Positions 1 to 20,000 of a stretch of DNA of 20,000 nt are shown here, piece after piece. The notes beneath the pieces are model-generated. The model was given only the letters and a program-made list of their open reading frames with translations, made no database searches and was not told the DNA's origin. How positions within the stretch are numbered: position 1 is the first letter of the stretch; every line of letters starts with the position of its first letter. The stretch is from positions 56,854 through 76,853 of the forward strand of contig KZ538373.1 of the NCBI GenBank assembly GCA_000934665.2, given 5' to 3'. The translations under genes and the position numbers were made by a program. Origin of the DNA: Catajapyx aquilonaris (lineage: Eukaryota).

Positions 1-3000
1 GGGACATGTTCACTCCTGCCCATTCTCCCAGAAGCCACACGATGCGTGCTCGGAGGATGCGGTAGTTAGGCTCACCAATCTTCAGTTCCGTCATCAGACT
101 GCTGGTGAACCACTTGTCAAAGTCAACCTGGAAAATGATGAAATGAGACTTACGCATCCAACTGACTGGGAGCAACATTCATTTTGTGTTACAAAGAATA
201 TTCTGACATGTAAAAATCAAACCTACCTCATTATACAAATCAAATGCAGTAAGTCCTATGACATTGTAAATGGCATCCTTCCTGAGGATTTCGCTGAGGT
301 CATCTGGAGGGACGGGAGCACTCTTGGACCTCATCAGTTCCAGCACTACAGGAATCAGGACCTTCTGGAATATCTTGAATAGCTCGAGGAACAAGTCTTC
401 TGTACACGGCTGGTGGAAACAAAAAAGAAAAGTGTTTGGAAAAGTTTTTACTCCCAAAATCATACTAAACTCACCCTAATATCACATTTAGATGATTCTC
501 CTCCTTCAACAGTTGCTGTGGACAGACAATTTAATTGTGTTATTCCGCAGCGATGTCAATAGGTTAGAGTACATTTTGACGATACTCACCCAGCAGTTCT
601 GGGTCACTATCCCACATCTCAAGGTCAGCCTTTGAGAATGGGAAGTACTCAAACACAAGCTTCGTGGCAATGTCGATCACTCTCTCCGTTGTGAAAAACT
701 GCGAAATTAGGTTCTGTGCCTCAAGTACTAATGGGTCCTTCACCTCTGTCAAAATTGCAACACAATTAAAAACGACAGTTCAATAGACACCTAATGACCA
801 ATTAACTTACCCCCAATGTACTTCCCAGGCTTGAACCTGTACTCGACACAGTCCAAAATCCCTTTCATCAGATTCATGCACTGGACGGTGAACCTCTCAA
901 AGGTGAAGGCCTTTCCCTCTGGGGTGAAAATGTAATGGTACACAAAGTCAAGGGAGGGTCGGATGAAGCGGACATAGGAGAAGGGATGCTGCTCCAGGAC
1001 CTCCAGGAGGACCTTCATCATTGAAGTGACACACTTCTCGCACAGGTCCTGAATGTGTTGGGAATACGGAGCAGCTTTCTTTCCTAGGGAGTTAGAAAGC
1101 AGAGCATTGAAGCTGTCACAGCCCGAATATCTTCAGGACTTACTGTATTCAAGGATGAATCTGATCCTTTCAAAAATATGGCTTAGGAATAGCACAGTAA
1201 CTTCAACCTCATGTGGCTTCTTAAAGCCACGTACAACCAGCTTCCGTAACACTTTGAGAGCCAGCAACCCCTTCTCCAAACTGGCTGTGTGGCCCACTCC
1301 GTTATTCCCTTCCTAAAATCCACATCAATATGAGACACGACCTGGGGCACCACAATGAGTGCATAGCTCACCTGCTGGAAGAATGTGTCAAGGTGAAGGT
1401 TCCAGACTGTAAGGATATACCCAAATACATTTTCGGCCAGCTCGCAAAAGACCCTCCTGTCACCGGTAAGCGTCTTGGAGGACAAAACCTTGACGACATG
1501 GTGAAGAATAAGCAGCGCACGATGTTGGCAGATCTCATTGTCAGATTTAAGAGCCTCGAGGAGCGTTGGGATCAGCTCTGGCCACTCACGAGGAAATTCA
1601 AGCCTACGGAGAAACAAAAGGTTAGAGCACATGTCGTATTCATTGCAAGCATTTCCATTACCTGGCAATCCTTGAGATCAGCACTGCCAACTGCACTGCT
1701 ATCTGGTTCACTGGTTCCACTACATTTGAAATCAGTCCTTGCCTGAGAAAAGTCTTCTCAGCATCAGAAATCGCACTGGAAAAAAATATTGTCATTAGTT
1801 AATCTGGAGAGGTTGGCCCATGCTCTCAAACACTCACTTGGGTGCATTCCGTCGCCAGTAGCGGTTGATCCCATTTTTGAAATACAAAACGGCCAGGCAG
1901 CGGACATGCTGGTCATTCGAATGGTTCGAAAATATGTTCTGAAATGCAGTAATATGCTGTAGAATTCAACAAGTTCATTAAGGCACATTTCTCAAAAAAC
2001 AATGTTCATTGGCAGGATGCAAAAATATGTCAACATTCTGAGCTTAACTGCAGTTAATCTCCGGGAGCCGTTCATTATAAATTGTAATTTCATTTCATCA
2101 TTTTGGCGACAGTTTTCTGCCCTTCATATATCAGTACAAACTATGAATCATTGATGATGCCATATTGCATCATGCCAGAATATAAAGAAAAGATTAGACG
2201 CCGCCTTTTCCTGGTGATTGGAAATTGTCAACAACCTGAATCTAAATCACCTAACACTTTGCAGGGTCTCACATGAACCGTCAAGGCCATGCACATCAAT
2301 GTCATTGAACATTACGCCATCAAATAATTTTGAAATGGTACAACACTGGAAAAAACCTCGGACAAGTATTCCTCCAGGTCATATCATGTTACCCCCAACT
2401 GACACGACCTGCAACTGTACCATCTATTATGCGGATCCTTGAATTTCACACTTCACACAGGCTGTCGACAGTTTTGGTCTTTGGTCGCGTTGACGCCGTG
2501 GACCAATCATGACACATGTAAACGAGCTGTAACAATGTGTTGCTCTTGTTTACATGAGTCATGATTGGTCCGCGGTGTCAACGCGACCAAAGACCAAAAC
2601 CGGCGGCGGCCTGTGTGTATTGGCCTCTATTTTCACACGAGCGCCGCCGCATAAATTAGGCGGCACTTCTGGCCGCACGTCTCGTGTGAACGGCTTCTTA
2701 TTATTCAATGCAAACATGTGGCAGCGCCCTGCCCTGCCCACCACCAGCATTTCTGGCGGCACCTGGGCAGCACTGCCAACCACATGTGAATCCACTGCAT
2801 CGCTGTTCACGATGCTAAAATTAGCATTGTCAACAGCAGTGCTTATTCGCACTGGTCCCAAGGTTGTGACAGAATTGTACTGCCCGCCTTGCTCTTCCCC
2901 GCCGGGAGATTGGCACCTGGGAGGTGCGGTGCGATTGGCACCACTTGCCGGCGGCGAGGAGGGGGGAAGCTGGAGTAACCTTTGACCTTTGAGGTCACAA

Positions 3001-3482
3001 GGTTGTGAGTTCAAACCCGGCCTAGGTCGGTGACTTTTCTCTAGGTGGTAGAAAAGTGAGAGTACGCCTTCCTTCGGAGGGGAAGTAAAGCCGTCTGTCC
3101 CGTGTGCTTGTGACATTGCGCGAGTGCACGTTAGAGATCCCCAGAGTGGCCAAACTTCCCGGAGGAGGACCACCCCCTGGCGTCGGTATTGAGCCGTAGA
3201 GGCCGACGTTAAGCCCCACTGAACCCAGTGCTTATTCGCCTACGCATTTACGATGAAAGTGGGCCAGTCTGTTGTGTGCGGACATAAGTGAAGGAACAAG
3301 TGTCCTATCCATAGGGGACATGTCCAGTGTCGGTGTCCCCTCACCAGCAATACGGGGTAGAACCCAGGCAGCGACTCCCACTCCTGGAGCTTGGCCTCCG
3401 CCGGCTTGAGCAGCTCCACGTCCTGACTGGCCGCCTGCTGAAGGGTCTCCAGCACCAGGGAGTATGCCCCCTGAGATTCCAT
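1..3482 (-). CDS. IPO11: Importin-11 (karyopherin beta family), 5' part; coding exons 3482-3345, 1938-1838, 1775-1662, 1603-1372, 1312-1144, 1083-811, 745-590, 515-475, 409-227, 127-<1 (continues beyond window)
   Basis: Joining exons at GT-AG boundaries gives one open frame: MESQGAYSLVLETLQQAASQDVELLKPAEAKLQEWESLPGFYPVLL/NIFSNHSNDQHVRCLAVLYFKNGINRYWRRNAP/...IAVQLAVLISRIAR/LEFPREWPELIPTLL...QHRALLILHHVVKVLSSKTLTGDRRVF.../PCTEDLF...KDAIYNVIGLTAFDLYNE/VDFDKWF...YRILRARIVWLLGEW. These match importin-11 motifs as I recall them (LAVLYFKNGIxRYWRR, WPELIPTL, KDAxYNxxGLxAxxL, VDFDxWF). Confidence 0.93.
2454..2626. mobile_element. Palindromic MITE-like element in IPO11 intron 1
   Basis: Near-perfect inverted repeat of ~70 bp: CACACAGGCTGTCGACAGTTTTGGTCTTTGGTCGCGTTGACGCCGTGGACCAATCATGACACATGTAAAC (2454-2523) pairs with GTTTACATGAGTCATGATTGGTCCGCGGTGTCAACGCGACCAAAGACCAAAACCGGCGGCGGCCTGTGTG (2548-2617). 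The right end TGTGTGTATTGGCCT resembles the terminus of the MITE at 17235-17390; the left terminus is degraded. Confidence 0.75.
2632..2795. mobile_element. Second MITE-like relic with nested inverted repeats, adjacent to the first
   Basis: TTCACACGAG (2632-2641) / CTCGTGTGAA (2681-2690) is a perfect 10-bp inverted repeat. A second imperfect pair is ACATGTGGCAG..TGCCC / GGGCAG..CCACATGT (~2714-2787). Confidence 0.5.
2960..3225 (+). mobile_element. tRNA-derived SINE with Deu/Nin-domain-like core, in IPO11 intron 1
   Basis: Pol III B-box GAGTTCAAACCC at 3007-3018. It is followed by CCTTCGGAGGGGAAGTAAAGCCGTCTGTCCCGTGTGC...GCACGTTAGAGATCCCCAGAGTGGCCAAACTTCC and a tail GACGTTAAGCCCC, which resemble Deu/Nin-domain SINE cores (recalled similarity, not searched). 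Boundaries are approximate. Confidence 0.65.
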
Positions 3483-3994: not shown

Positions 3995-6900
3995 ATGGCA
4001 GGCAAAGGGCTGCCGAAGATGGTCACGGTGTATCTGGCTGAAGGAGGGCCTGGACCAAGCGGGATGCTGCCCAAATGCAGGGTCAAATGTAAGGGCTAAA
4101 GTTGGATATGGTCGGTGTGGGTGTAATAATTGGGGTGTTTTTCAGCGTTTGCTAACTTACCGAAGCACTTGCAGTCGGGTCGGAGGGATGAGGATGACAT
4201 CGCAATGGTGGATGACGTGGAGAATGATCCGGAGTACGAGCCAGAGGGTGAGCTGAAAGAAGTGTCGTCCGCAGGTTTGCAGCCGATTTGTGTGTTTTTA
4301 AGATTCAAAGTATTATAGCAGATACATTTTTTTCAGATGATTCGGACATCCCTGAAAATGACAGGCCTCGACAGAAAAGGCAGGACAACTCACCGGTGAA
4401 GAAGTCCGCAAGAATTGAGGCGAGACGAAGCTCCAGAGCTCCAAAGAGGAAAAAGCCCTTAACTGATGACGAAGATGACGATGACGATAAGGTTGTAAGT
4501 GACAGTTTGATAATTAAGTAGTCGCTTACAAGTCAGTAGCAATGTCAAAAGTTGAAACTATAGAGCTGATGTTCTCAAGCAAAATGTTCATCCAGATATG
4601 CCTGAATTATTTGTTGTTTAATCTTTAAAACATATTTCGTCTTTTTCAAAAAAAGAGAGATCAAAGTCGACATTTGCGTAAACGTCGTACGTGTAGGACG
4701 ACAGGCATGTCTGGGTTAGTAAACATTTTAGGACAATTGTTTTAAAGATTTGTACTATGTCCTCACTGAAGGCTGTGTCAAGTCCCTCAAGAAGGAAGTG
4801 GAGTATGGCGTGGGCACATTACCATGAAGTAAATAAGAATATTGCGAGGTGCAAGTACTGTCAGAAAATGATTTCATTCCGAACCACCCTCACAAACTTA
4901 AAGGCTCACATGATATCCCAGCATAAGGATGAATGGACGGCTGCGGAGCACGAATTGATAGAGGTTAGGCATACTTCTTTTAGGGAACCTCAGTGGGAGC
5001 ATGTACATTGTGGATAACTTACATTTGTACTCCCATTTTTTCTTGTCAGTCTCAGCGGATGAGTGTGGAGCCGGCGACTAGAAGGAAACGGAGCATTTTA
5101 TGGACCTATTTTCAACAAGTTGGTAATGGGACAGCCATCTGCAACTTGTGTGAAAAACGAGTCTCACACAAGACCACATCCTCGAACCTGAAGCGACACT
5201 TGCAGGTGAACCACCCAACCATCACTCTTGAGTCTGGAGGGAGATCCACGTGTGCATCAGAAGCTTCAGGGCATGAGATCAGACGAGAACGAAGCCCCGA
5301 GTATGATGAAGAGGAGCCAGATGCAGGTCAATGATTTTCATGTCATATAATATTTTACACATGGATATTTGTTATGTAGATGTCACGCTGTTGATTTGGT
5401 GAATTGAAGCATCATGTGATTTACTTGTCCAATAGAATCAATTGTGGAAGCGGAGTTTGATCCAGAGAATTCCCAGCAGCCAACCATCACGGCTTTCCAA
5501 GGGGACAGTGAAAATGGAAGCGATGAAATGCCAGATGAGGAGGTGAGAGGTCTTGTGGAAACATCACGATTTTAAATGCGCGGCATGTGCACATTAATTC
5601 CTTGCAGCAGTGAAGTGATTCCTGGTGTGTGCTTCTCTTCACAGATAATCCCAGACGTGAAGACACCAGCAAGTACAAAGAAGAAACGGAGCTCCCTGTG
5701 GGATCACTTTACATCCAAGGGAAACCGCATGGCCACTTGCAAACGCTGCTCGAAGCTAATCTCTTACAAGACCACAACCTCCAACATGAAGCACCATTTG
5801 AAGACGAAGCACCCCGAAGTTGACCTAGACTTATCACTTGTCTCAGCAGATAGCCAGCCTGCTGCTTCGTCTGCAGGAAACAGTGCTACAAAAAGAGTCA
5901 TCATCGCCACATCTTCAGTAATAAACCAGGTCAACAGGAAAAACATTGACCGCAGCCTGATGGAAATGTTCATAAAAAACAATCAACCTTTCTCACTGCT
6001 GAAGTCGGAGAATTTCATCAAGTTCACAATCTCGTTGAACCCAAACTACATTCCGCCATCCATGAAGCACATGACTAGAACAGTACTTCCTGCCCTGTAC
6101 AAAGAGTATGTCATACAGGTCAGGTCAAAGATGCTACAAGCCACAAGAGCTTGTGTGACGGCGGATTGCTGTGACGTCGGTACTGAACGTCTGATCAGCG
6201 TCATGGCACATTACAATGACGAGAGCTTGGAAACGCACCATGTGCTGCTCGAGTGTTCGGCATTGGGTGACTTTGAAGCATGTTTTGTTGTGGCTCGAAT
6301 CATGCAAGAGTGGGGATTAGACAGCAACACGGAGAGAAAGGCTTCCTTGCTGGTTACCGGTGCAGGCTTGGCTGGAGCCGAGATCAGCAACACAAGTCGG
6401 TTTGAGTGCCTGTCGTACCTGCTGGATGCAATTGTTGTGCATTCACTTGAACAGCATGCCAAGATACTGCTTGAGCAAATTAGAGCCATGGCAGACTATT
6501 TTGGGAAGAATCCGCTAGAAGAGCAGAAATCAAAGGTATGTTGGTTGTCTGAACAAGTCAAGAGTAACGAGTAATAATTCGGCACCTTGGTTGTTCCACA
6601 GGATGCGGATGTGAAACTGCTCACCCGAGATGTGGACACCCAGTGGCCCACGACCCTGCAGATGTTGCAACAGTTTGTGGAACTTGAGAACAGCATCAGA
6701 GCTGTGATTATATCAGTGTCTGAGACAGATTTTCAAGCAGCTCGTGAATTAATTGAGATCCTGATACCGTGGGAGGAAGTGTCTGAAAAGCTGAAGAGCG
6801 ATTACGTGTTGGGGGCAATGGTGGTCGTATACACAGAGGGTCTCCTGGACCACTGCAACGAGTTGAGCTGCAGACCCCGTGAAATTCTGTCAGCCACCGT

Positions 6901-7527
6901 CCTGGCCACGCTGACAGCGGAACTGAAGGCCTTGCTGAAAAATGTGGAAGACGAGGGCAGCCTAGGTCTGGCCACATTGCTGGATCCGAGGTTCAAGACA
7001 CTGGGATTTCAGGACAGCGGACATGCCCGGACCGTCAGGAGTCGCCTGGAGAAAATCCTGGTTGAGCAGGATCCAGGGAGAAGCGAGGCGTCACCTGTGA
7101 AGACGCCATTGCCAGGCCGACCCATCACAGGGCTATCCATCCTTTCCAAGTTCCTGGGAAAAGTGGATGCCACCAGGCCCACCGTCCTGCCGCAGTGTCG
7201 CGGGATTGTTGAGTTACAACGGTGGGTACAATGCAACGTAATCCCAGCAGAATGCTGAAGCCTTATTTCAAATCCCGTTTTCATTGCAGGTACCTGATCG
7301 AGCCCTGCCTGGACATGGAGGAGGACCCGCTCCAGTGGTGGCAGCAAAGCAGGGAGTCGTATCCGTTCCTGTCCAAGGTTGCAAAAGAGACACTCTGCGT
7401 ACAGGCTACCTGCATCCCTGCGCAGCTGGTGTTCACAAAGGCCAGGCGGCTGATTCGAGATTATTGCGGTGACCGCAGTTTGGAGAGGATGAAGTACATG
7501 TTGTTCTTGGATGCTCACATGGACTAA
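3995..7527 (+). CDS. Domesticated hAT-transposase-derived zinc-finger BED protein (ZBED-like; 3 BED fingers, inactive DDE core, hAT dimerisation domain). Proposed exons 3995-4088, 4146-4247 (alternative donor 4274), 4337-4494, [4697-4714 possible micro-exon], 4772-4963, 5050-5326, 5436-5542, 5645-6535, 6602-7221, 7290-7527
   Basis: Three BED fingers: WSMAWAHY..ARCKYC..TTLTNLKAHMISQH, RSILWTYF..AICNLC..TTSSNLKRHLQVNH and RSSLWDHF..ATCKRC..TTTSNMKHHLKTKH. hAT core: NQPFSLLKSENF..LNPNYIPPS, DVDTQWPTTLQML, ATLLDPRFK. C-terminal DPLQWWQQSRESYPFLSKVAKETLCVQAT. Splice phases are compatible at the proposed GT-AG junctions; the N-terminal exon linkage is less certain. Confidence 0.88.
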
Positions 7528-8074
7528 AATTCCAGTGAATCAGACCTTGTTCAAATGGCCTGACCAGCTTTACACACGTTGTGGTAACAGAAAGACCAAT
7601 GGTGGTTAATGCCTCTTTGACACTGTACTGTACTTTACTCGATGAAAATGCTTGTGCATTTTTAACAGGAAAATCATGTATCGTTTCTAGATGTAAGGAG
7701 AGTTTGACATAAAAATATTAAATAATGGAAATTGATATATTTTTCCAGACGGTGAGCGAATCTAATACGGCAGTGATCCCTGTTAACGTTACACGTAACT
7801 GATAAGAACTGGACCGTTTCAATTTTGTCGATTTATTTCCGCTAGCATAATATGAAAATAACACCCACGAACATTCATGTCTTTTAACACTCTGAAGTCT
7901 ACCAGTGGATTGAAACAGATAGCAATCGTGTTCAAAACACTAGCACAGGAAGGTGGGGGTGTACCAGATGCAATAATAAATGGTTACAACTCTGCACTAT
8001 TGGCATCATGATCAATAATTCTAGTTCGTAAAATAACAACGGTGTCCACACACGAGGTGCTAAAACCACCAGCA

Positions 8075-11000
8075 TTACACTCTGAGCCTGTCCATGTAAA
8101 TGGGCTTGGACTGCACTAGGTCTGAGTAAGTGGCCGAGAGATGTCTCAACTCCTGCAAAGCATAGTCTTCTGGGAGGGGCAGCTGTGCCAGCAGTTCTGC
8201 CCCGGGTAGGACCCCGCTTTGTTCGCCTGTCTCTCCGGCCAGTACGAACATGGCTCTGAGCACGTGAGCAAGGCGCTTGGCCATCTCCGCTTGACACAGG
8301 TGCTCCTTTGGGGTGTGCACCTTCATGGACATCACACGAGACACTAGGGAACCCAGCTTCGGCCCCAAGCGCGATGCCAGCCCTGGAGCGTCCTCTGATT
8401 TTGAAGCGACCATGTGCTCCACGGCTTCCAGCACCTGTCGTATTGAAAGAACTCATGAAAATATTTCTGGTTACATAACACCTCACCTGAATGCAATGCC
8501 ATTACCTGCAGATACTCCCAGAAGACGAGCCCTCCATTTGCCCACCCAGCCACTCGAGATGCATTTTGTGGGAGGGCCATTTTGTTCAGGAAAGCTGCCA
8601 GATGTGCACGGTTGTCCTGAACAACTGCGGATGGACCCACATGTGAAGTCAGGAGGTCGTGGCAGCGGGTCCAACGACCCGCCTTCAGCCAGAACCATGC
8701 TTCAAGCTCGGGGAGACCCAAAGATGATGCACGAGTCGCCTTTGCTTCGAAGATCCATTCGGCAGGGATGTGAAGCTCATGCTGTATATAACATGATGAT
8801 AATACAGGGTGGTTGCAAAGTTAGATTTCATTCAAACCTGCAAGAACTCCTCGATGTTTTCCTCCCCTTGTGTGGAAACATGCCTCCCAAGCAGGTCCCT
8901 CAAGATGGTGTCTCTTGCCGGGGAGGTTGGCAGGTGCAGAACCACAAACGCAGCCCACCACCACAAGCCAGAGGCCTCCAGCTGTGCAGCAAAGCTGCAG
9001 TGCAGGTTGGCTGCCTGATGGGCACCAATGTGGCCGTACCCAAGCGACATCAGGGCCTGGTGAAGATGCCAGCTGGTTCTGAAATCCACAGGGTCGCGGG
9101 TGTGTGTGTTGGGCTGCAGCATTGCCTGTACAGGGGATAAGGGTGGTCAGCTCTCACGACTTGCGACAAGCACCGCCGAGTCCTAACCTGCAGCGGATGT
9201 GACCTCTGCCCAAACAGCTTGAGCATGTGGAAGCACAGGTCATAGGGCATGGAGGGATCATGCTCGATTCCCTCCACCCCCAGATCTTCCTCCAGATGTG
9301 GCGGCAGGGGTGGCGTGGCGTAAATCCCGCAGTCCCACCCTGCCCCAACGTTGATCTCCTTTCTGAACGCACGCTCGTATTCTCTCAGCACAGCCGGGAG
9401 AGAGGAGGCTGGGGATGTGATATACCACAGATGCACTCCCAGGCACCGCTTCCAGTCCAGCCCTGCACAGGTGTTGACCTCCCCTCCGTAGGGGTGAGCT
9501 TCAACGGGATCGTCTGAGGTGAGGTACACCGGAATACCAGCGGCCAGGGCCAGTGTGCGGAGAGACTCCAGGGGCATGTGTCTGTCTGCCTGTGCCTCGG
9601 CCCATGTGCCCATCTGCTGCTGCACCAGGCGCTGGCTAGTCATGCTTGACGACTAATGGAAAAAAGCGTTCCAGTTAGCCTTCACTGTGTGATCATCTGT
9701 GTGTACACTCACCTGTGTGATTAGGAGTGCTGCTCTGTACCCTGCTTCTTCATCTACGTACTCACACCAATCCCTCAGCTGGTGTCCCGTCAGCTTGGCG
9801 CTCCTCCCTCTCCATCCTTCCTCCTCCACTTTTCTCCTGTCCTCCTCCACCTTCCCTTCCACCGCCCCTTCCAGCCAGTTCCCAACGCCTCTCTTCCTTG
9901 CCAGCATCCAGGCGTGAGTGTTGGGCCGCAACTTTTCAGGCTCTGGCACCTCCTTGCTCTGGTCTATGCGGCCCCACAACGCTTTTGCCAGGCCCCATGC
10001 CAAGTGGGAAGGGTCGGACTTGGGTGAATTTTGGGCAATGTCGTAGTGGGAGTGGATTGGGTCAGGGCCGTGCTTGGCCTTGAAAGGTTCGTCATTGTCT
10101 GGGTCGCGGCTGTCCACAGACAGGGACAGCTGAGCCTCCAAGTGCTGCTCCAAGCACTCATCTGATGAAACCTGCAGGGCGCATTTAATATCAATTATTT
10201 TGCTGGTTGAACCGAGTGAAAGTTAGCTCTTACCTGGAGCTTCATGATGTTGACCTCCAAGTTTGATCTGGAGGTGAGTGTCCAGCCTGCCCCCCATCCA
10301 ACCCTGAAAGCTCGTCCATGGAAAAGGGCTGCATCGGCCATCATGGCCTGCTTGCCTGCCAGCAACGTCTTGCTCAAAGGAATGTCATCATCGGCATGCT
10401 TTGGCGGAACCATCACTGGCTTCTCTAGTGGTAGAGGTGTTGGTAGGGGTGCTGTAGACTGCTTCGGGACTGAGGGTGCCATTGAGGTGGCTGCGAGGAA
10501 GGCAGGCAGGCGGGGAGCGGCAGAGAGCTCAGGCAGGCGCAACGAAGGTCGCTTGCAGACAGGCGACCCAGGAACAGACTGGTCCATTGTCTCTGACTCC
10601 ATATCTTCCTCGTCCGATTCGTCGGCAAAGAAGGATGCTTTCATCATCTGGATGTTGCGTCGCATGCTTGGAAGCACTTCCCCTGACCCGATGTGCTCCA
10701 TGCTCAGTTCCTTTTCCTGGACAAAAAATCCAAGCCATTAGTTCAGAATAATTACATCAAATTCCAAATGATTGAAGCGAACCTGTCTGCTGATTGGGCG
10801 GTCCTGGTCCTCCATGGCTTGATCCTCTTCTCCTATTGTATCCATGTGGTGCATAACCAAGTTCCCATTGACAGACGGTGACATGGAGGAAGGTACAGGT
10901 GGAGTTGGAAGTGGCTGGGGTGGCACAGGGGCAGCCGTGGCATCGCCCCCACCCTTTCTGGCAGGTGACAGCTGAGAAGGCTTTTTGAGAGGTGGTGGTC

Positions 11001-14000
11001 TCACCACTGCCACACTCCCATCTTCTTCCTCATCCTCCGCTGTAATTCCATACTTGGAAAAGTGCTTCACACGAAACACCCACGACCCAGTCTCAGGCCG
11101 GTATTCCACAAAGGTTGAGTTTAGCTTCGCACAGGTACGCACCAGCTTTTCTTCATACCTGGAATCCAACAGTGGTTGTCACAAACCATTGGCTACACTA
11201 GAACACGCAATTCCACCAACTTACGCCATTGCCTCGAGCCTTTCTGGGTTTGTGATTGGCCTCTTTATGGTCTTGTCCATCGGCCAGACTCTGTCTAGAG
11301 TCACCTGAGCAGGCCTATTCAGTCCCTCCCCTTCAGGAGGTTTGTCCTGGTCATCTGGATACACCACAACTTCCTTCAAGCGAAGATGCACCAGCTTGTC
11401 CAGGTCCAGACCAGACACATCCAGTGGCCCATCGTAGTAAAGGCTGCCGTAACCCTGCCTCCCAATGGTGAAGTCCTCCACCAAGCAGGAGCCATCTTCA
11501 GGGTTGGTCAGCTCAGCAAGTTCCTCCAAGGATGGAATGGTGTAGTAGCCAGGGCGACGAAGAGTGATGCCGGCTGGGTGGACTGTGCTGGTTGGAGTTG
11601 CTCTGCCTGCGTTCATGGAAGGCTCTCCATCAATCCATGATTCCATATCACCTGTACATGACAAAAGTTTCAAGTTAGAAACAGGCCATTTCCAATGTGA
11701 CAGCCAATTGCTTACCACGTGATTCGTCAAGATCGTTGAAACCCAGCCTGCCGACCTCTCTGTGATCATCCGTGCTCGAATCAGCAAGGGCCTGCCTGAG
11801 CTCCCGCTGCCTCTCCTTTGGCATGCCCAAGATGTCCCCTACTCCAGAATTCTCTCTGCTCCCAACTGGCCTGCCTTCTCTCTCGGGCAACCTGTTCCCT
11901 TCCCTGCTGTTCCCATTCTGAGCCACTACACTGTCACGATTCGGGGGCGACTGCTGGCTCTGTGGCCTAATTACCAGCCTCTTGACGCTGTGCTTTGGCA
12001 CAAAGATCTCTGCTCCACCAGGGGTAGAGGGGTCATCATCCTCACCAAATCCATCAAAGAGACCAGTGGAGGAGTTTGGAGTCAGCTGCACTGGGCGAGG
12101 CTTGATCTTCACAGTTATCCTGAGAATTGAAAAGACACTGATTGAAGTCACGAATAATTAACATACCACGTCCAAATACTGACCTTGGGGAGACCTTGTA
12201 CAGAGCCACGTCGTTAACTGCCTTCTGTGCAGTTGGATTAGTGGGCATGAGCACCTCTTCTCTCCTCCCGCTGGCAGTAACCCCTCTGAACAGTGGGGAA
12301 TCTCCAAACGGACTTGAGGCCAGTGCCAGTATCTGCTGCTGAGCCGAAGACGACGCTTCCTGGATCCCCACAGTGCCCAAGGTGCCTCCTCCCAATCCAC
12401 CGCCTCCCAAACTGCTCATGCCTCCACCCAAGGTAGACCCAAATCCCCCCATCAGTCCCCCACCACTCAGAGATCCTCCTCCCAGGGTGCTTCCCGAGCT
12501 GAAGCCAGACCCAAACATCATCCCCGTCTTGTTGCCTCCAGCTGAGAACATGGTCCCACCACCAAGCCCAGTGCTACCAGTGGCAGGCGTCTGACCAAAG
12601 CTGAATCCGCCAGAGCCGAGCCCTGGGGCCTTGGCAGGCTGGCTGAAGAACGTGGAGGCTGGGGCAGAGGCACCGAAGGTCAGGCCTCCTGTGCCTCCGA
12701 GACCGGGAGCAGTGGAAGAAGTGGTGCCAAAGGAGCCGAAGGGCTGGGTCTTCTGACCAAACAGACTCTGAGTGGTGCCTGGCTGCGTTGCCTGATTGAA
12801 ACCCGGCAGCCTTGTGGAAAGGAAGAAACAATAAATTAGCATTGTCATACTACACGCTGATATACCACAGGGATACGAAGAATCTCAATTAATGCAACAC
12901 TGTGCCGAAATCAATAATACTGCTGCCCGTATTACTACATGAATATGTTCACAGCACAATCTTGCAAGTGGGCAATCTTTTGGCACAAAAAAAAAACCAA
13001 CGGCAGGATCAAACTTGAACAATAACCGTTGACGTTGACGTTTCAACTTGTGAAACATCTTCCGCTGCCATGCCTGCTTCATCATCCTTCCCTTGCACTC
13101 CAAGAGCAGGAGTAAAGCATCTGCTCCTGAAGCTATCCTACATCCCACATATTGTGTTCAATGTTGAAACCACGGTAATGCATTATAAGCAAACTCACCC
13201 AGTGGAACCAGGCAGGGTGGATCCAAAGTTGGTCTTTGGCGCGTTGAAGAGGCCGATCTGTTGCTGCTGCTGCCCCTGCTGCTGCTGCCCTTGGGTGCTG
13301 CCAAACACGCCAAACCCTGCCCCTGGAGCCACGGTGTTGCCGGGAACCGTCCCTGTGCCAAATGCGCTCGTCCCCTGCTGGGGGGTGCTCCCAAAGAGGC
13401 CGCCGCCACTTTGAGGAGCAACCACTCCAAACGTCTTGTTGGGTTGGGCACCAAACAAGCCTGTTGCGAAGAGAAGAATTAAATTCAACCTGTTACGCTA
13501 CTGATAAGTTGGACATTTACCTCCCGCGGTACTGAAACCAGTGGTGGTGGATGTAGCGGCTGGGTTCCCAAACACCGTGGGTGCCTTGCCGAAGAATCCC
13601 CCAGTCGCAGCCCCAGCAGCAGTCCCAGTGTTCTGCGCCTGATTAAAAAAGCCTGTTCCGAAGCCAGTCTGGGCAGTGCCAAACATAGACTTGTTCTGTG
13701 GGGCCCCAAACAAGCCTGACGTACTGACAGTGGCTGGGGTGGGGCCTGTGGCAGCCCCAGTGCCGAACAAGCCCCCTCCAGCCTGGGCAGCACCAGGAGT
13801 GAATATGGTGGCCGCCTGCCCTGGGACCTGCTGACCCTTGCGGTTGGCACTGTAATCCTCCATCCGCAGCTCCTCCAGGCTCTTAGTGTCATACTCCTTC
13901 ATGCACGTGATGCACTGATGCCGGGTGCTGATATTGTGAGACTGCCCATTTTTCATCATGGTATCTGTTCCGGTGGGTGGATTGAATTTGACTGTGGTGC

Positions 14001-14643
14001 CCACCAGGGCCCCAGTCGTCCCAAATGCAGTCGTGCCAAACAGGTTGGTCGTCCCAGGGGAAGCCACCACCGATGGCTGCCCAAAGAGGGACTGTGCCGT
14101 GGACTGCACTTGCTGTTGGCCCACCACCGGCTGGGCTGCATTTTGGGCACCAAAGAAGCCACTTGTGTTCCCTACGCCAGTCCCAAAACCACTGGTGCCT
14201 GGGGCAGCTCCAAACGCAGTCTTGGTCTGCCCAAATGTGGAGGTCGATGCTCCAAACAGGTTGCCTCCAGACACCTGGTTAATGAAGTCCACAAAATGAT
14301 TAACATGCAAGGCCTGACAATCTTGAGAAATGGGAAGTACTCTGACCTGTGGGGTTTGACTAAATGGCGATGCCGTGGAAGTGGTGGCAGTGGCCCCAAA
14401 CCCAAATCGAGGGACATTTGCCTGGCCAAATCCAGTGGATCCAAACAGTGGCGCTGCCGTCGCTGTGCCTGCAGTGCCAAACAAGGAGGGTGTTTGGTTG
14501 CCAAAAGACTGTGAGCCAAAGCTGGGTGTCGGAGCCTTGTTGCCAAACGCAGTCTGCCCAAAAGGATTGGCTGCTGTGGCATTCACATCATTGAAGCTGA
14601 ATGATGTTCCTGGCATGCCAAAGGTTTTGTTTTGCCCAAACAT
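8075..14643 (-). CDS. Nup98-96: Nuclear pore complex protein Nup98-Nup96 precursor; coding exons 14643-14347, 14274-13521, 13460-13199, 12810-12184, 12119-11716, 11651-11225, 11158-10783, 10716-10234, 10171-9713, 9652-9188, 9125-8838, 8781-8506, 8434-8075 (5478 nt, ~1825 aa)
   Basis: N-terminal FG/GLFG repeats. GLEBS motif [61 protein letters not shown]. Autoprotease domain [21 protein letters not shown]...[24 protein letters not shown]...[19 protein letters not shown]. Nup96 motifs [54 protein letters not shown]. All introns are GT-AG and the summed exon length is divisible by 3. Confidence 0.97.
11056..11064 (-). other. HF|S autoproteolytic cleavage site separating Nup98 and Nup96
   Basis: Minus-strand codons CAC TTT TCC (His-Phe-Ser) within [10 protein letters not shown], the conserved self-cleavage motif of Nup98-96/Nup145. 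Confidence 0.95.
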
Positions 14644-15056
14644 GCTGAGGAAAAAATATGGTTATTATGTAACAGTATAACCTTCATGAAAGGTGATGGC
14701 AAATTTTTTTATTTGCATAATTATCACTTAAATTGACATCTGATTAAATTCTGATAGCATCTTGCGGCAAACGGGGCAGTACAATGGGAAATCATGATGG
14801 GGCCTTTGAAGTTTTATGAAAATAATGTTCATGACCAATATGCTACACAAAAAATCAGCCATCCTCGATGATTGTTGTGAAAATTTAAATAACAAATTAT
14901 GGCAGATTCCTAGCGCCCTCTGTGACCATTTAAAATGCAAACAAAATGAAAATTCACAACTTTGAAGCATAGGTTTTCACTACGAGAGAACAGACATCAC
15001 ACATTTTCATCTATTATTATTAGGAACTTGCAACAAAAATTATTGGGGGCCTCTCA

Positions 15057-15183
15057 AGGTGCGTTTACATGAGAGCGATGTCATCGCCGAGTGATAACAT
15101 TACTGAGTAACCAGTATTGTTGAAGGCAAATTAAACATTATTGGTCACTTAGCTCATCAAATTGCTCACATGTAAACCTCGCT
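15057..15183. mobile_element. PIF/Harbinger-type MITE (127 bp) in the Nup98-96 5'-UTR intron
   Basis: Imperfect TIRs AGGTGCGTTTACATGAGAGCGAT / ATTGCTCACATGTAAACCTCGCT, flanked by a 3-bp direct repeat TCA (15054-15056 and 15184-15186). Confidence 0.72.
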
Positions 15184-15669
15184 TCAATAGCGAAAAGAAA
15201 GACATCGAGTAAAACGTAGTTTGACAGGTCAGACAAAATCTGGGGCCGCACCTAAGTTTTGGGGATGGTGACTGGCTGTACATGACACGACCTTACGTAA
15301 GATGACTGTGACAGCAAGACTGGTAGTTGTGATAGGCCAAAACCGTAAGGTAGTGCGGTTCAACCACTGCAATCTAATCTGTATTGTTTGACCTCACCTG
15401 TTGTATCAACATGGCTAACTAGCTTACCACTGTACACCCAGCACTGCCCAATCTGAAGGGCAAATCACCAAAATTGGTCTGACCCTCAATTATTTATTAT
15501 AAACACTTGTGTAATGTTTGCACAATGAGTTGAAATCAGGCGCAACATTGTCTGATAATCCGGATAGATCAAGGCAAGTGTACCTGCGGCCTGTTCCTGT
15601 CCCGCAGTGGGTGGTGCAAGGCCAGGGTGCCCGAGGGTCTCCGGCTCAACAGCAGCAGAGGAGGACCAC

Positions 15670-15980
15670 CACGGGCAACATGGCTATACTTCCCCCGCAA
15701 TAAACATGGCGGACAAGGAAGACCACCGCGAACACTACTTCCCTCTGCAGCCACCAGAGAGGCGCTCCGACCCCATTGGCAATAATGCCAATCAGAATTT
15801 AATCAGACTATTTAAATCTAGACGTAATTAATACACAGGTTGTAACTAGTGTGGAATTTAAATCATATTCGGCAGCCATCTTGGAGCTCCAGCCAATCAC
15901 AATATAGAGCTCCGAGTTCAGCCAATCAGATCGGAAGTCATGACCGTTGCAATTCAAGTTTGAACTTGTCAGAAATTCAG
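15670..15980. promoter_or_regulatory. Bidirectional Pol II-type promoter for Nup98-96 (minus) and the candidate telomerase RNA (plus)
   Basis: CCAAT boxes: ATTGGC 15775-15780, GCCAATCAG 15787-15795, AGCCAATCAC 15891-15900, AGCCAATCAG 15920-15929. YY1-type motifs: AACATGGC 15677-15684, AAACATGGCGG 15702-15712 and the opposite-strand GCCATCTT 15875-15882. ETS-like CGGAAGT 15932-15938. Inr-like TCAGAA with its A at 15979. The Nup98 ATG exon starts with a splice acceptor at 14645-14646, so an upstream non-coding exon is required. Confidence 0.7.
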
Positions 15981-16445
15981 AAGGGCTTCGGAGTTGGTGG
16001 CGGGAGGACGTGGCCTCGGGTCACCTCCTCCTCCTCTGAGAGGGGGTCGGGGGTGCCAGACCAGGGGCCGCCCTACCTGCCACGGGCACTAACCTAACCT
16101 AGGTGTCGTGGCTGGCTTCGGGAGATCTTTGGCCACTTGGAGCCTCGCTCCTCCTCAATTCAAAGATCTCCCCTGGGCTTGGTTGCCCTTCTTTTGGATC
16201 CAGTTTGGGCTTGGTTCGGTCAGGGATGATGCCCGCTGGGGTTCTTGAAAAAGCACCAGGCTGACCTTCGTGGTCGGCTGGGCAAGGACACCCCTGGAGG
16301 CGACCTGACCTCTCTCCCGCAGTGGCTGGAGGAGCATCACTGCGGGGGAAGGAACCAAGTCGGATCCTACAGAAAAATTGTGCAGGGTGCAGGGTCGTGG
16401 TGCACCAATCTAGCCCATGGCCCGGCCCACTAAGCACAGACACAC
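15979..16445 (+). ncRNA. TERC: Candidate telomerase RNA (TTAGG template, pseudoknot, box H/ACA), ~467 nt
   Basis: Template CTAACCTAACCTA 16089-16101 (complement of TTAGG repeats). Boundary helix GTGCC 16053-16057 / GGCAC 16085-16089. Pseudoknot: P2 GTGGCT 16108-16113 / GGCCAC 16131-16136 crossed by P3 GGGAGATCTTT 16120-16130 / AAAGATCTCCC 16162-16172. P1 AGAAGGGC 15979-15986 / GCCCTTCT 16185-16192. Long arm closed by GGATCC 16196-16201 / 16362-16367. H box ANANNA (AGAAAA 16371-16376). 3' hairpin TTGTGC 16378-16383 / GCACAG 16434-16439, then ACA at 16440-16442. Confidence 0.82.
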
Positions 16446-16689
16446 CCATATTTTTTACAATATAAGATGTGATTGAAAATATTGCTGAAAATCTAGTCTT
16501 TTCCAGGTTGCCAAAGATGTACGGCCTGTAGCGACACATGCAGCGTATCGATGCCAGCAGTTCAAAACAAGCATTGTTCATTGTTGTCTCTTAAAAAGTA
16601 GAGTTGCTCTCCATTATTTTTGTCTTTGCTGGTGGTCCAAGCAAATAAAAAGAATAAACAATAGCAAAATTATTAGAAAGTCAAGTTTG

Positions 16690-17185
16690 AACATGCCCCA
16701 CAAGTACACCTGCATGTTCACTGTAAGAGTACCATAATTGTCTGAACTTGGAGGTGTACTTGGATACCTTCACCTCATCAGACCTGGTGCCTCTCTGAAT
16801 GACATGTTGAGTTTGACGGAAATCACCCAACATGACACCTGCGACACCTCCCATGACGCTGTCAGAATCTTGCACATCCTGCAGTGTTCTGTTCCGAGCT
16901 TCCACTTCTCCCTTGTGAGTCATAGTGCAATCATCCCAGATTATGATGCTGCAGTCTTGCAAAACTTTGGGCTCATGTGTCCGCTTCACGATGTTGCAAA
17001 CGGTGCTCTCGGCATACCCCAGATTAAAAGGCAATTTGAAGGCAGAGTGACCAGTGCGACAGGCTTGCAGCAGGGTGGCGGCAATTTCCGAGGAGGCAAT
17101 GGCAATGGTTAGTTCCCCAGATCGAATTCTTGCCAGCAGGATATTGGGTATAAATATTCTGACAGTTTTCTAGCATCTGGGACAA
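16690..17185 (-). mobile_element. Decayed Helitron Rep/Hel fragment (Pif1-family helicase domain)
   Basis: The minus-strand frame reads ILLARIRSGELTIAIASSEIAATLLQACRTGHSAFKLPFNL...CNIVK...KVLQDCSIIIWDDCTMTHKGEVEARNRTLQDVQDSDSVMGGVAGVMLGDFRQTQHVIQRGTRSDEV. This matches Helitron helicase motifs (ASSGIAATLL..GRTAHS..KLPL, IIWDECTM.H, GDFRQ.LPV). Walker A is degenerate and frameshifted (~17150-17180), and Walker B DE has become DD. Confidence 0.88.
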
Positions 17186-17234
17186 CAATTAAGTCCAACA
17201 TTATGCCCAAGCAAAGATGGCGGCCTTTCTGTTA

Positions 17235-17390
17235 AGGCCAAAACACAAAAAGATTTTGTGGCAGCGTCAAGCGGCAAACGCCTGCCCCGCCAATTATTAT
17301 TAATTGTTGGCAATAATACATGTAAATAATAAATATGCCGCAACGCGCGCCGTTTGCCGCGCGTTTTCTTTTTTTTGTGTGAAATGGCCT
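17235..17390. mobile_element. PIF/Harbinger (Tourist-like) MITE, 156 bp
   Basis: TIRs AGGCCAAAACACAAAAAGA / TCTTTTTTTTGTGTGAAATGGCCT; TTA target-site duplication (17232-17234 and 17391-17393); internal perfect inverted repeat GCGGCAAACG (17271-17280) / CGTTTGCCGC (17351-17360). Confidence 0.8.
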
Positions 17391-18102
17391 TTACAGCAGA
17401 ACTATTCCGTTGTCAACAACGGTTGATATGGCAATTCAAAATGTGACATACCTATACCAAAATCAACTGCTTTATACTATAAAGGATATGTGCTCCCTGG
17501 CATCGTAACGCAAACATACAAAATGCAGTGACAGGATTTCAGGAGATTTTTAAATCCGTACACTTTCGACATACACACAGATTTCTTTGAAAAGACTAAC
17601 TGAATAACAACATGTGTGGCTCATCAATTGCTTTCTTTACGTACACAAAATTTACATAAGCTTAATAATGGGTTAGTGCAAATTAATGTAGAAAGAAATC
17701 AAACTGGTGATAGGATCTGGTCCTTCTTGTGTCCCCCTGCAAGAAAGCTTCATCATTACAAAATTGGTCTTGGACATTTTGAGAATGTCAATAATTCATA
17801 ACAGTGTCCAAAGAAATGTACGATACAAAAAACATCAGCGTCAACATCCTCCAGCCCAAACAGTTCTAACACTCGATCAGTTCCATCTGCCAATAGCCAG
17901 CCAAGCTCTGATCACTTCTAAAAATTGATGACAGGAAGGAACAATCTTGTGCTTCACCATTGTCGACCCCCAGAGTAGCAAGTCACTGGCGGTTACACTC
18001 AGTCACAATAATCAACACCTACGGTCCAGTGAGTGCCACTACATCTCCCCAAACCTTAGGGTTCATTGTTGGGCTCCTGCTGGTTCTCCAAATTCCGAGC
18101 CA

Positions 18103-19611
18103 TCATGTCCAGTGGGCCTTGTCCGCTGCCGAGAGCACTCCTGGGACAGGCCCAACTCCAGCTCCCTCGACAGGGGCGGGCACCACTCCTGCCCCTGGAT
18201 CGGCCCCAGGTCCTGCAGCCCCTTGCCTCGCAGCAGCTCCTGCTCCTTGAAGTTCGTCCGTTAGATCCATCCCCATTCTGTTCTGCGTCCTCACCCAACC
18301 TTGATGGATCAATGTCTAGGTTGTTAGCTTGAGCTAGATAAACAGAACACATCAACAGTGAAAATTAGCTGATCTGAAATGTAAACACCCACTTTTCTGT
18401 TGTTTGGAAACATCCAGTACTGCATCTTTCTCTGTCTTCTTCACCCCTGCGCTACTTCCTCCTCCTTCCCCAGCCCCTCCAGAACCAGCTTGTGCTGCCT
18501 TTCCCAGTTCTCGGCTGCGTCCAGCTGGGCCTTGGCCTTGGGGTCGCTTGTCACTGGTTTGTCTTCAGGTTCACCACCCTCCTTTCCTGCTGATACCGCA
18601 AGTAAGAAAGTGAAGCCATGACACAACAGCCTTCATCTGAAGAGCTCTCTTTTGACAAAATGCTCCTCCGAGTCCATCCCGCCTCTTTATATTGCCTTTA
18701 AAAAACTGATGCACTGCAATTAAATGCTGTTAAAAACTGTTAAAACCTCCAGTAAAAAATGGATTGCAAAAATGTATAGCAGCTGGTTAGAAAAATTCAG
18801 GCAGAAACCTATGTCACAAGTCTGGATAAATTATTCATCATTGTAATTAAGCATACAAGCAAAGATTTCTCTAATCAAAAGACTCATGCTGGTCCGTTCC
18901 CTACATTTGAACCATTCCTCCAAAAATAAAAACATGCGACTCATTCAACTCACCAAGGTTTCCACTCTGTGAATCCTGATTCTGCTTATTGTCTTTCAGC
19001 TGCAATCCCTGCAAATATTGGAAGAGAATAAGTAAGTAAAACGGGGAGGTGTGGGTCGCCGAGATCCTTGAGTCTCGGCTTGCTGTGTGAAATGTCCCAG
19101 GTTCGATCCCCACCCGGGAGCTCCCCTTCGCCTGTGTCAGTTGGGTCTCTGACCCGCACCTTGGAGGCGTCTTGGCAACCTGACCTCCAGGCAGGGGGAC
19201 TGCACATGACCCAGTTTGAGACATCGCACTTGTACCTGTGTCCCTTCTCCAAAAATCCCTATTCCCTTCCCCATGTCCCTTTCTCCCTTGCACGGTGTGT
19301 GAAGAAAAAATTACAGAAAACTGATTGGTACAATGGTGGTGTGCCACCTCCCTAATGGAGCACAGATTCTTCCAATGGGGTGAAATAAAATAAATAAGTC
19401 AGTAAAACACCAGTTTACGTAACATGTGTCGCCTCAAGCCTGGTTGCAGCCAAGTCCTCACCTGCTCATCAATGATGGCCAAGAACTGCTTGAACTCCTT
19501 TTCCTTGGCATCCTTCACAGGATTGTGCTTCTCCTTCATCAACTTCTCACTGTTGCTCTGAAGTTTGGCGATCAGTTCGTCCTTCGTTGCCACACTTGTC
19601 TCCGTATTTTT
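18103..19611 (-). CDS. 3' exons of an unidentified gene (charged/coiled-coil then Gly/Ala/Pro-rich), possibly frameshifted; exons 19611-19462, 19008-18954, 18589-~18441, plus an uncertain terminal segment ~18335-18103
   Basis: Phase-compatible GT-AG exons give KNTETSVATKDELIAKLQSNSEKLMKEKHNPVKDAKEKEFKQFLAIIDEQ/GLQLKDNKQNQDSQSGNL/AGKEGGEPEDKPVTSDPKAKAQLDAAENWERQHKLVLEGLGKEEEVAQG*. No family recognised. The 5' end probably lies outside the window, and downstream coding-like sequence is in other frames. Confidence 0.5.
19043..19275 (+). mobile_element. tRNA-derived SINE-like element in an intron of the unidentified gene
   Basis: The head GGGGAGGTGT...GCTTGCTGTGTGAAATGTCCCAGGTTCGATCCCC...CTCCCC has a B-box (GGTTCGATCCC 19100-19110) and a tRNA-Ala-like anticodon/T arm, but a degenerate D arm/A-box. 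A GC-rich body and pyrimidine-rich tail follow. Confidence 0.6.
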
Positions 19612-19904
19612 CTGTTTGAAAATAAAGAAGGACAGTGACAAGTGGGAAATACCCCCTTCTATGGGTCATTGGCCCACCAAGAATGCAATAAATCAAACAT
19701 TAAGTTAAAAGGAAAAATCTTTCCCCAATTGCTCGTTAAAGGTTCTCTGATTAACAATAATTATCAGCAGCATTGTTATGGTAGATTTTTGCAGACATTA
19801 TGCATAGAAAATATTAACAGGTTTGACGAGGTAAAAAAACAGAGGCTGGACCAATTTAAGAGCACCGGCAAATAGTATTCAATTATCGGACAATAAAATA
19901 AAAA

Positions 19905-19990
19905 CTAGGAAAATCCTCGCTCCGCTCGCCTTTTCCTAGGGCGCAGGCCTAGAAAACCACTCGCTTCGCTCGCTGTTTTCTAGGCCTGCG
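19905..19990. repeat. Two tandem related hairpins, probably part of a non-autonomous mobile element running off the window
   Basis: CTAGGAAAA (19905-19913) / TTTTCCTAG (19931-19939) forms a 9-bp stem. CGCAGGCCTAGAAAAC (19942-19957) / GTTTTCTAGGCCTGCG (19975-19990) forms a perfect 16-bp stem. Both loops are 17 nt and contain CTCGCTYCGCTCGC. Confidence 0.7.
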
Positions 19991-20000
19991 GCCTGCTGTG

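Follow-up and report, generated by a model that had tools for sequence, protein, structure and literature searches.

The locus and its probable transcripts

The window, that is, the whole stretch of 20,000 nucleotides of Catajapyx aquilonaris DNA that was analysed, includes a candidate telomerase RNA (TR) on the + strand and, on the - strand, the flanking gene NUP98-NUP96 (approximately 8000-15700). The introns of the NUP98-NUP96 gene include many of about 60 nt and, following a 5′ exon, one of 939 nt (14645-15583). The named matches of the gene, with Limulus, stick insects and moths at the top, were mostly about 55-68% identical. The predicted elements of the candidate RNA and of its probable promoter are as follows.

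15703-15938, no strand assigned: probable bidirectional Pol II promoter common to NUP98 and the candidate RNA (putative function)
15979-15986, + strand: P1 5′ strand, 8 Watson-Crick pairs with 16185-16192, closing the core; seen in a 501-nt fold
15997-16083, + strand: P1.1, a long template-adjacent hairpin (87 nt) that ends 5 nt before the template; candidate template boundary element
16089-16101, + strand: putative template CTAACCTAACCTA, 13 nt, complementary to (TTAGG)n
16108-16172, + strand: predicted H-type pseudoknot, with P2 at 16108-16112/16132-16136, P3 at 16120-16131/16161-16172 and a P2.1 hairpin at 16139-16151
16185-16192, + strand: P1 3′ strand, from the pairing check
16196-16367, + strand: P4 and two arms, a putative eCR4/5-type domain, from folding, shuffles and sampling; covered by an exact X1 contig
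16196-16201/16362-16367, + strand: P4a, with a 6-nt bulge (16202-16207) between it and P4b (16208-16217/16352-16361) in the predicted fold
16218-16310, + strand: long 5′ arm, 93 nt, joined to P4b by a 0-nt junction; the tip is a 7-bp hairpin with a UUCGU loop
16313-16349, + strand: short 3′ arm, 37 nt, consisting of 12 bp, a 2-nt bulge, 3 bp and a GGAGG loop
16369-16374, + strand: H box ACAGAA (ANANNA), 1 nt after P4
16379-16438, + strand: 3′ H/ACA hairpin, 60 nt, loop ACCAAUCUA
16440-16445, + strand: ACA box (16440-16442) plus 3 nt, presumably ending at the mature 3′ end

Transcription was assessed with one sequencing run, X1, which is not recorded as RNA and contained 0.29 of the sampled words. 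Comparison of X1 with positions 10001-19800 showed six joints with CT..AC ends, and the NUP98 pieces had 0 differences. From these spliced joints and difference-free pieces we infer that X1 is RNA of the same organism. One of the joints, 14644-15584 (CT..AC), sets the end of the NUP98 5′ exon at 15584 (- strand). Since this places the exon about 400 nt from P1, NUP98 and the candidate RNA are arranged head-to-head. Four CCAAT boxes lie between the two genes. The promoter region includes CCAAT at 15788, 15893 and 15922, ATTGG at 15775 and CGGAAG at 15932, words that we take to be CCAAT boxes, an ETS-like site (CGGAAG) and YY1-like words. No common upstream element was visible by eye in five U2, six U1 (one of them mis-indexed) and three U6 loci, and therefore these loci provided no PSE reference for comparison. 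The published TRs of Lepidoptera, Trichoptera, Hymenoptera and Coleoptera use snRNA-type promoters, whereas the candidate adjoins a CCAAT-rich divergent promoter.

An X1 contig of 344 nt (depth 6.2) was identical to 16193-16536; it comes from a single run, the contigs of which carry neither strand nor ends. X1 coverage of the candidate RNA begins at 16193, and the uncovered 5′ half provides no evidence either way. The contig extends about 90 nt beyond the predicted 3′ end and falls within a 160-codon ATG open reading frame of the opposite strand (16099-16581, - strand). The overshoot fits an untrimmed precursor and also an antisense transcript. An ATG frame that long was present in 61 of 1000 shuffles, and GC content was flat across the codon positions (0.54/0.56/0.50). 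The frame had no match in Pfam or the Atlas, a blank that constitutes weak evidence. A codon-bias score was dropped because it could not tell a coding exon set aside as a control from noise.

Another X1 contig showed 33 differences and 10 gaps in its alignment to 17782-18316, in the 3′ portion of the right-hand gene, whereas the NUP98 contigs were identical to the window; a divergent allele, a paralog or a second individual are the alternatives. Other features of the window carry provisional labels. Positions 1-2000 (- strand) presumably hold exons of an importin-11-like gene. The region at about 4000-7530 (+ strand) is presumably a gene with introns in which several BED-finger-like repeats accompany a body resembling a hAT transposase, and looks domesticated. 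We take the stretch just 3′ of the candidate RNA (16681-17169, - strand) to be a decayed PIF1/Helitron-helicase-like fragment and those at about 2970-3230 and 19050-19220 to be tRNA-derived and SINE-like; the last of these was matched by several divergent X1 contigs. Inverted repeats, presumably MITE-like, were observed at about 2436-2620, 17228-17400 and 19900-20000, and the first of them gave the most stable of all the tiles.

Predicted elements of the candidate RNA

The 13-nt template is the longest telomere-type run in the window, where the runner-up has 8 nt. The region that includes P1.1 (15990-16088) folded with a z score of -4.41, and none of 200 shuffles was equally stable. In the pseudoknot, P3 has 12 bp with UUU/AAA at the junction, and the 3′ strand of P2 comes immediately after P3. 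A comparable knot was found in 1 of 2000 shuffles, and a further run with relaxed settings gave 0 in 1000, with filters that, as those used for the H/ACA end, were composed after the sequence had been seen. A 5-bp P2.1 hairpin lies within the knot, at a position that matches P2.1 of the lepidopteran and beetle TRs in PMC11892584 and PMC13023368. The J2/3 loop, GGCUUC, has two U residues, by eye fewer than the protostome rows of Figure S3A in PMC8480181. Inspection of the core identified no convincing P2a. By inspection, GGCAC (16085-16089) could also pair with GUGUC (16103-16107), looping the template, a possible competing fold.

The sequence-only reading had described 16196-16367 as a three-way junction located where CR4/5 would be expected, with a much longer helix in place of P6.1. 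A motif check found all the helices that it named. GGATCC is present at both 16196 and 16362, and GGCTTGGTTC (16208) and GAACCAAGTC (16352) form nine Watson-Crick pairs and one G-U pair. Both halves of the closing stem stood, with the refinement that the 6-nt bulge splits it into P4a and P4b. The base of the long arm is formed by GGTCAGG (16218) and CCTGACC (16304), its middle by GTTCTTG (16241) and CAAGGAC (16283), and its tip by GCTGACC-TTCGT-GGTCGGC (16260-16278). The short hairpin, CTCCCGCAGTG (16314) and CACTGCGGGGG (16338), had been read as having 11 bp; it is present and extends to 12 bp through a 16313/16349 pair, with 3 bp more at its tip.

Folding predictions bore out the junction. 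The + strand of 16196-16367 had a free energy of -93 kcal/mol compared to a shuffle mean of -68.6 (z -5.67), and none of 200 shuffles was equally stable; the - strand fold was weaker (-77.1 kcal/mol, z -4.53). With default parameters, 4963 of 5000 structures sampled from this one sequence had the shape of a single three-way junction. At both 37 and 20 °C, each of the four parameter sets gave this shape as the minimum free energy (MFE) structure, with a broader ensemble under two of the sets. The domain had the second-lowest z score among 116 tiles of 172 nt, behind the inverted repeat at 2436, in a ranking that is rough, with 10 shuffles per tile and a tiling aligned to coincide with the domain. 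Pair probabilities were 0.98-1.0 in the closing stems, the base of the long arm and the short arm (0.76 for its first pair), and were unchanged across 172-, 471- and 1001-nt contexts. They were 0.99-1.0 at the tip of the long arm except for its first pair (0.64), and about 0.68 in the 3-bp tip of the short arm with its GGAGG loop. The middle of the long arm is the soft part, with values of 0.30-0.68 overall and of 0.30-0.66 for GTTCTTG/CAAGGAC. When folded alone, the long and short arms had z scores of -3.50 and -4.83. The junction linkers are UC (16311-16312) and AG (16350-16351).

The canonical P6.1 is missing, as had been claimed: its slot cannot form a hairpin with a 4-bp stem and a 5-nt loop. 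The invariant A between P6 and P6.1 is also absent, the linker being U16311 C16312. The short arm occupies the same topological slot as vertebrate P6.1 and snail P6; to say that a longer helix replaced P6.1 would go further, being a claim about homology that calls for orthologs.

The region that follows the domain, 16368-16445, had a z score of -3.18, a stability that was reached in none of 200 shuffles. The combination of H box, hairpin and ACA box was present in 6 of 2000 shuffles. The consensus of the CAB box is UGAG. This word is absent from the 3′ hairpin loop, ACCAAUCUA, and also from several protostome 3′ loops published in PMC8480181, such as that of Phoronis, CCAACCAU. The H box reads ACAGAAAAAUU compared to ACAGAAAAAUACA in the Conus TR row of Figure S3B of the same article. 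By eye, the H box and the P3 junction words resemble the protostome rows of Figure S3, the H box especially the gastropod rows.

The candidate RNA as a whole has about 467 nt (predicted span 15979-16445), within the 239-599 nt of animal TRs, and the region had a z score of -6.82. Within about 470 nt the elements are found in the order P1, P1.1, template, P2/P3 pseudoknot with P2.1, junction, H box, hairpin and ACA box. The domain therefore lies between the template-pseudoknot core and the H/ACA end, which agrees with the proposed CR4/5 (or eCR4/5) position. As modeled, the RNA fits most of the features of metazoan box H/ACA TRs; it has no UGAG CAB box, and its J2/3 is less U-rich than in the rows of Figure S3. 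We consider that 15979-16445 is very probably a TR.

Host genome, TERT and search for relatives

A COII frame in the genome was 92% identical to that of Japyx, 85% to Occasjapyx, 79% to Parajapyx and at most 77% to the other named matches; because of these identities, the host was placed as a japygid dipluran. A frameshifted ND2-COI stretch on another contig is probably a nuclear copy of mitochondrial DNA; the intact COII is elsewhere, after a tRNA-sized gap.

(TTAGG)6 had 432 overlapping matches in the genome compared to 0 for the reversed control. Among the matches listed, most were internal to contigs and thus are no proof of a telomeric location. Many short internal TTAGG arrays are spread across contigs, and similar repeat elements bearing TAACC dominate the metagenome pattern matches. 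TTAGG has been predicted as the telomere repeat of the campodeid dipluran Campodea (PMC8977481).

The genome had one TRBD match, a TERT with TRBD and RT domains in an open frame of 761 residues. Most of TERT, from the N terminus to RT motif D, is included in the 761-codon frame (490-2799, - strand, of its contig region), with a CTE exon downstream, and the T motif begins with MYVTP compared to the consensus FYVTE of the aligned TERTs. A protein search produced 1506 HMMER matches, and a word-based search none. The closest named matches (six were named among the ten examined) belonged to cockroach, katydid, stick insect and centipede, with 29-32% identity. About 200 residues located before the TRBD align with non-holometabolan and mollusc TERTs. 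The match of the N terminus to the human TEN region fell short of the threshold, and a profile of ten TERTs matched a TEN structure with an E value of 0.0037. In a structure model, pLDDT was below 50 over the N terminus, and residues 1-192 were too weak for a fold search. These comparisons suggest that TERT may retain a TEN-like N terminus; the pLDDT values keep TEN at the level of a suggestion.

The candidate RNA is single copy in the genome; one search pattern was tailored to this locus and serves as a paralog check only. Rfam had 0 matches in the window at the gathering threshold, and the five weak matches at E values up to 10 included no TR family. One degenerate template-plus-P3 pattern found 98 stretches in metagenome contigs, 0 of which passed the pseudoknot filter, the one that the RNA in the window passes; no homolog was found in this search. 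A comparison with other analysed stretches of DNA also gave no look-alike. Since there was no ortholog to compare, no pair is backed by covariation. No report of an H/ACA-type arthropod TR was found in a literature search limited largely to open-access papers and, for the insect TRs, to main texts.

Relation to known telomerase RNAs and possible role of the junction

The absence of P6.1 is not new. As described in PMC8480181, protostome TRs have no CR4/5 and no P6.1; their P4 bears one or two long stems. The proposal that the domain is a lineage-specific oddity was therefore not supported, and it plausibly represents one more instance of an element already known from protostomes. As predicted, 16196-16367 has the structure that defines a protostome eCR4/5, with long stems on P4 and no P6.1. 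In position, in its three-way junction and in having the long arm 5′ of the short arm, it resembles the CR4/5 of vertebrates, fungi, hemichordates and basal metazoans. Unlike the canonical P5/P6/P6.1 structure presented in PMC4993307, the modeled domain has no P6.1 (4-bp stem, 5-nt loop) and no invariant A, and its arms are much longer; for the lack of P6.1 and the invariant A, it falls outside canonical CR4/5. Echinoderm TRs, which the sequence-only reading cites for a divergent equivalent, are not the best comparison. Their eCR4/5, a functional stand-in, has the same position and no P6.1, but it is described as an internal helical region (PMC4993307), and the loss of P6.1 in echinoderms is reported as independent (PMC8480181), so it is not the nearest relative.

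The closest parallel that was compared in detail is the TR of the apple snail (Pomacea diffusa), in which Logeswaran et al. defined a P4/5/6 fragment of 174 nt (nt 162-335). According to that report (PMC8480181), the snail core alone is weakly (basally) active, and the 3′ stem P6 stimulates it in trans while P5 does not. Both domains lie between the template-pseudoknot core and the H/ACA end, have a P4 with two long stems and no P6.1, and are nearly equal in size (172 nt here and 174 nt in the snail); in both RNAs P1.1 adjoins the template. They differ in the arms (93 and 37 nt here compared to 54 nt for the P5 and 65 nt for the P6 fragments), in the template (TTAGG type and 13 nt compared to TTAGGG type and 8 nt), and in the core, where the candidate combines P2.1 and a very long P1.1 with the lack of a clear P2a. 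The hosts also differ, as the host here is an arthropod, a group in which no TR was found in PMC8480181.

PMC11892584, PMC9841428 and PMC13023368 show that the TRs of Lepidoptera, Trichoptera, Hymenoptera and Coleoptera share with the candidate a TTAGG-type template, P1.1 and a pseudoknot, and P2.1 is common to the candidate and the lepidopteran and beetle TRs. In the same sources, the TRs of Lepidoptera and Hymenoptera are small, that of Spodoptera having 135 nt, with neither H/ACA nor CR4/5, and the text on the beetle TR (PMC13023368) describes the core only. The candidate, unlike these short insect TRs, has about 467 nt, with P1, a junction and an H/ACA end predicted.

We think it likely that 16196-16367 is the eCR4/5-type domain of a full-size box H/ACA TR in a japygid dipluran. 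With the same degree of confidence, by analogy, the junction would be a second domain that contacts and activates TERT, P4 doubling as the 5′ hairpin of the H/ACA domain. In the proposed pathway, Pol II would transcribe the RNA from the promoter in common with the head-to-head NUP98, and H/ACA proteins would bind at the 3′ end, which they would trim back to about 16445. TERT would copy the 13-nt template, bounded by P1.1, adding TTAGG. The junction, as in the snail, may bind TERT as a second contact and lift the basal activity of the core to full activity without a P6.1 loop. The short 3′ arm is somewhat favoured as the stimulating element, because by position it is like P6, the 3′ stem that stimulates in the snail (PMC8480181). 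Stimulation by the long arm is possible and less likely, and a need for the intact junction is unlikely.

The RNA could also be a TR whose H/ACA domain simply uses the junction as its variable 5′ hairpin; the junction would then act as a spacer setting up the H box, and the core alone would activate TERT. Such a role is compatible with the lepidopteran TR, which works without CR4/5 (PMC11892584), with the snail results, in which the core alone was basally active and one of the two arms inert (PMC8480181), and with the presence of P2.1 in the candidate and insect cores. Against it, these 172 nt with two stable arms match the snail domain shown to function, both in size and in layout, and the TERT keeps the approximately 200 residues before the TRBD that align with those of non-holometabolan and mollusc TERTs; we regard this role as rather unlikely. 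Still less credit is given to a locus that encodes no TR at all, in which template and knot would have arisen by chance in some structured, GC-rich transcript, in an H/ACA RNA of another kind or in the mRNA of the 160-codon frame (16581-16099, - strand). The antisense frame exists and includes the X1 contig, the - strand also folds well, Rfam had no match, and TTAGG-type runs are common in the genome. Nonetheless, the shuffles, the flat codon-position GC and the lack of Pfam or Atlas matches speak against a coding frame, and this alternative does not account for the canonical order of five elements on the + strand.

A canonical CR4/5 nested in the long arm is very improbable. In that arrangement P5 would be 16231-16234/16280-16283, P6 would be 16236-16259 and the UUCGU hairpin would serve as P6.1, selected on TERT binding. 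Such a junction can be drawn, and the middle of the long arm is soft. GACC-UUCGU-GGUC is the only all-Watson-Crick hairpin of the domain with 4 bp and a 5-nt loop, and its loop starts with two U residues, like the essential U residues of acorn worm P6.1. The ensemble energy of the nested form was 7.0 kcal/mol worse (-88.78 compared to -95.76) and that of the 4-bp form 12.8 kcal/mol worse, and the MFE structure stayed a single junction with four parameter sets at two temperatures. In addition, the stem of the hairpin lengthens to 7 bp, and protostomes are reported to have lost P6.1 (PMC8480181). The nested form was rejected on energy, being 7.0-12.8 kcal/mol worse.

What appears to be new, if the model is correct, is an arthropod TR that retains an eCR4/5-type domain and an H/ACA end. 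PMC9841428 and PMC12133305 date the switch away from H/ACA TRs to the time when arthropods or Ecdysozoa diverged, and call for TRs from further lineages of arthropods. A structure-based search found no arthropod TR (PMC8480181), and arthropod TRs are stated to be without H/ACA (PMC12921731). We lean towards the interpretation that the candidate is a transitional TR, with an insect-like core (TTAGG template, P2.1, reduced P2a), ancestral eCR4/5 and H/ACA domains, and a TERT with an N-terminal domain.

The TERT and the RNA from the same genome would be a ready pair to address how a domain without P6.1 activates TERT, a question named in PMC8480181 and PMC4993307. Of most interest are the RNA as a whole and the animal that carries it, which is wingless and closely related to insects. 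A full-size dipluran TR would date the shrinkage to within insects and seed the search for the missing arthropod TRs. If the interpretation is true, H/ACA, CR4/5 and TEN were lost inside insects rather than, as has been proposed, when arthropods arose; H/ACA-type TRs would then be expected across crustaceans, myriapods, chelicerates and early-branching insects.
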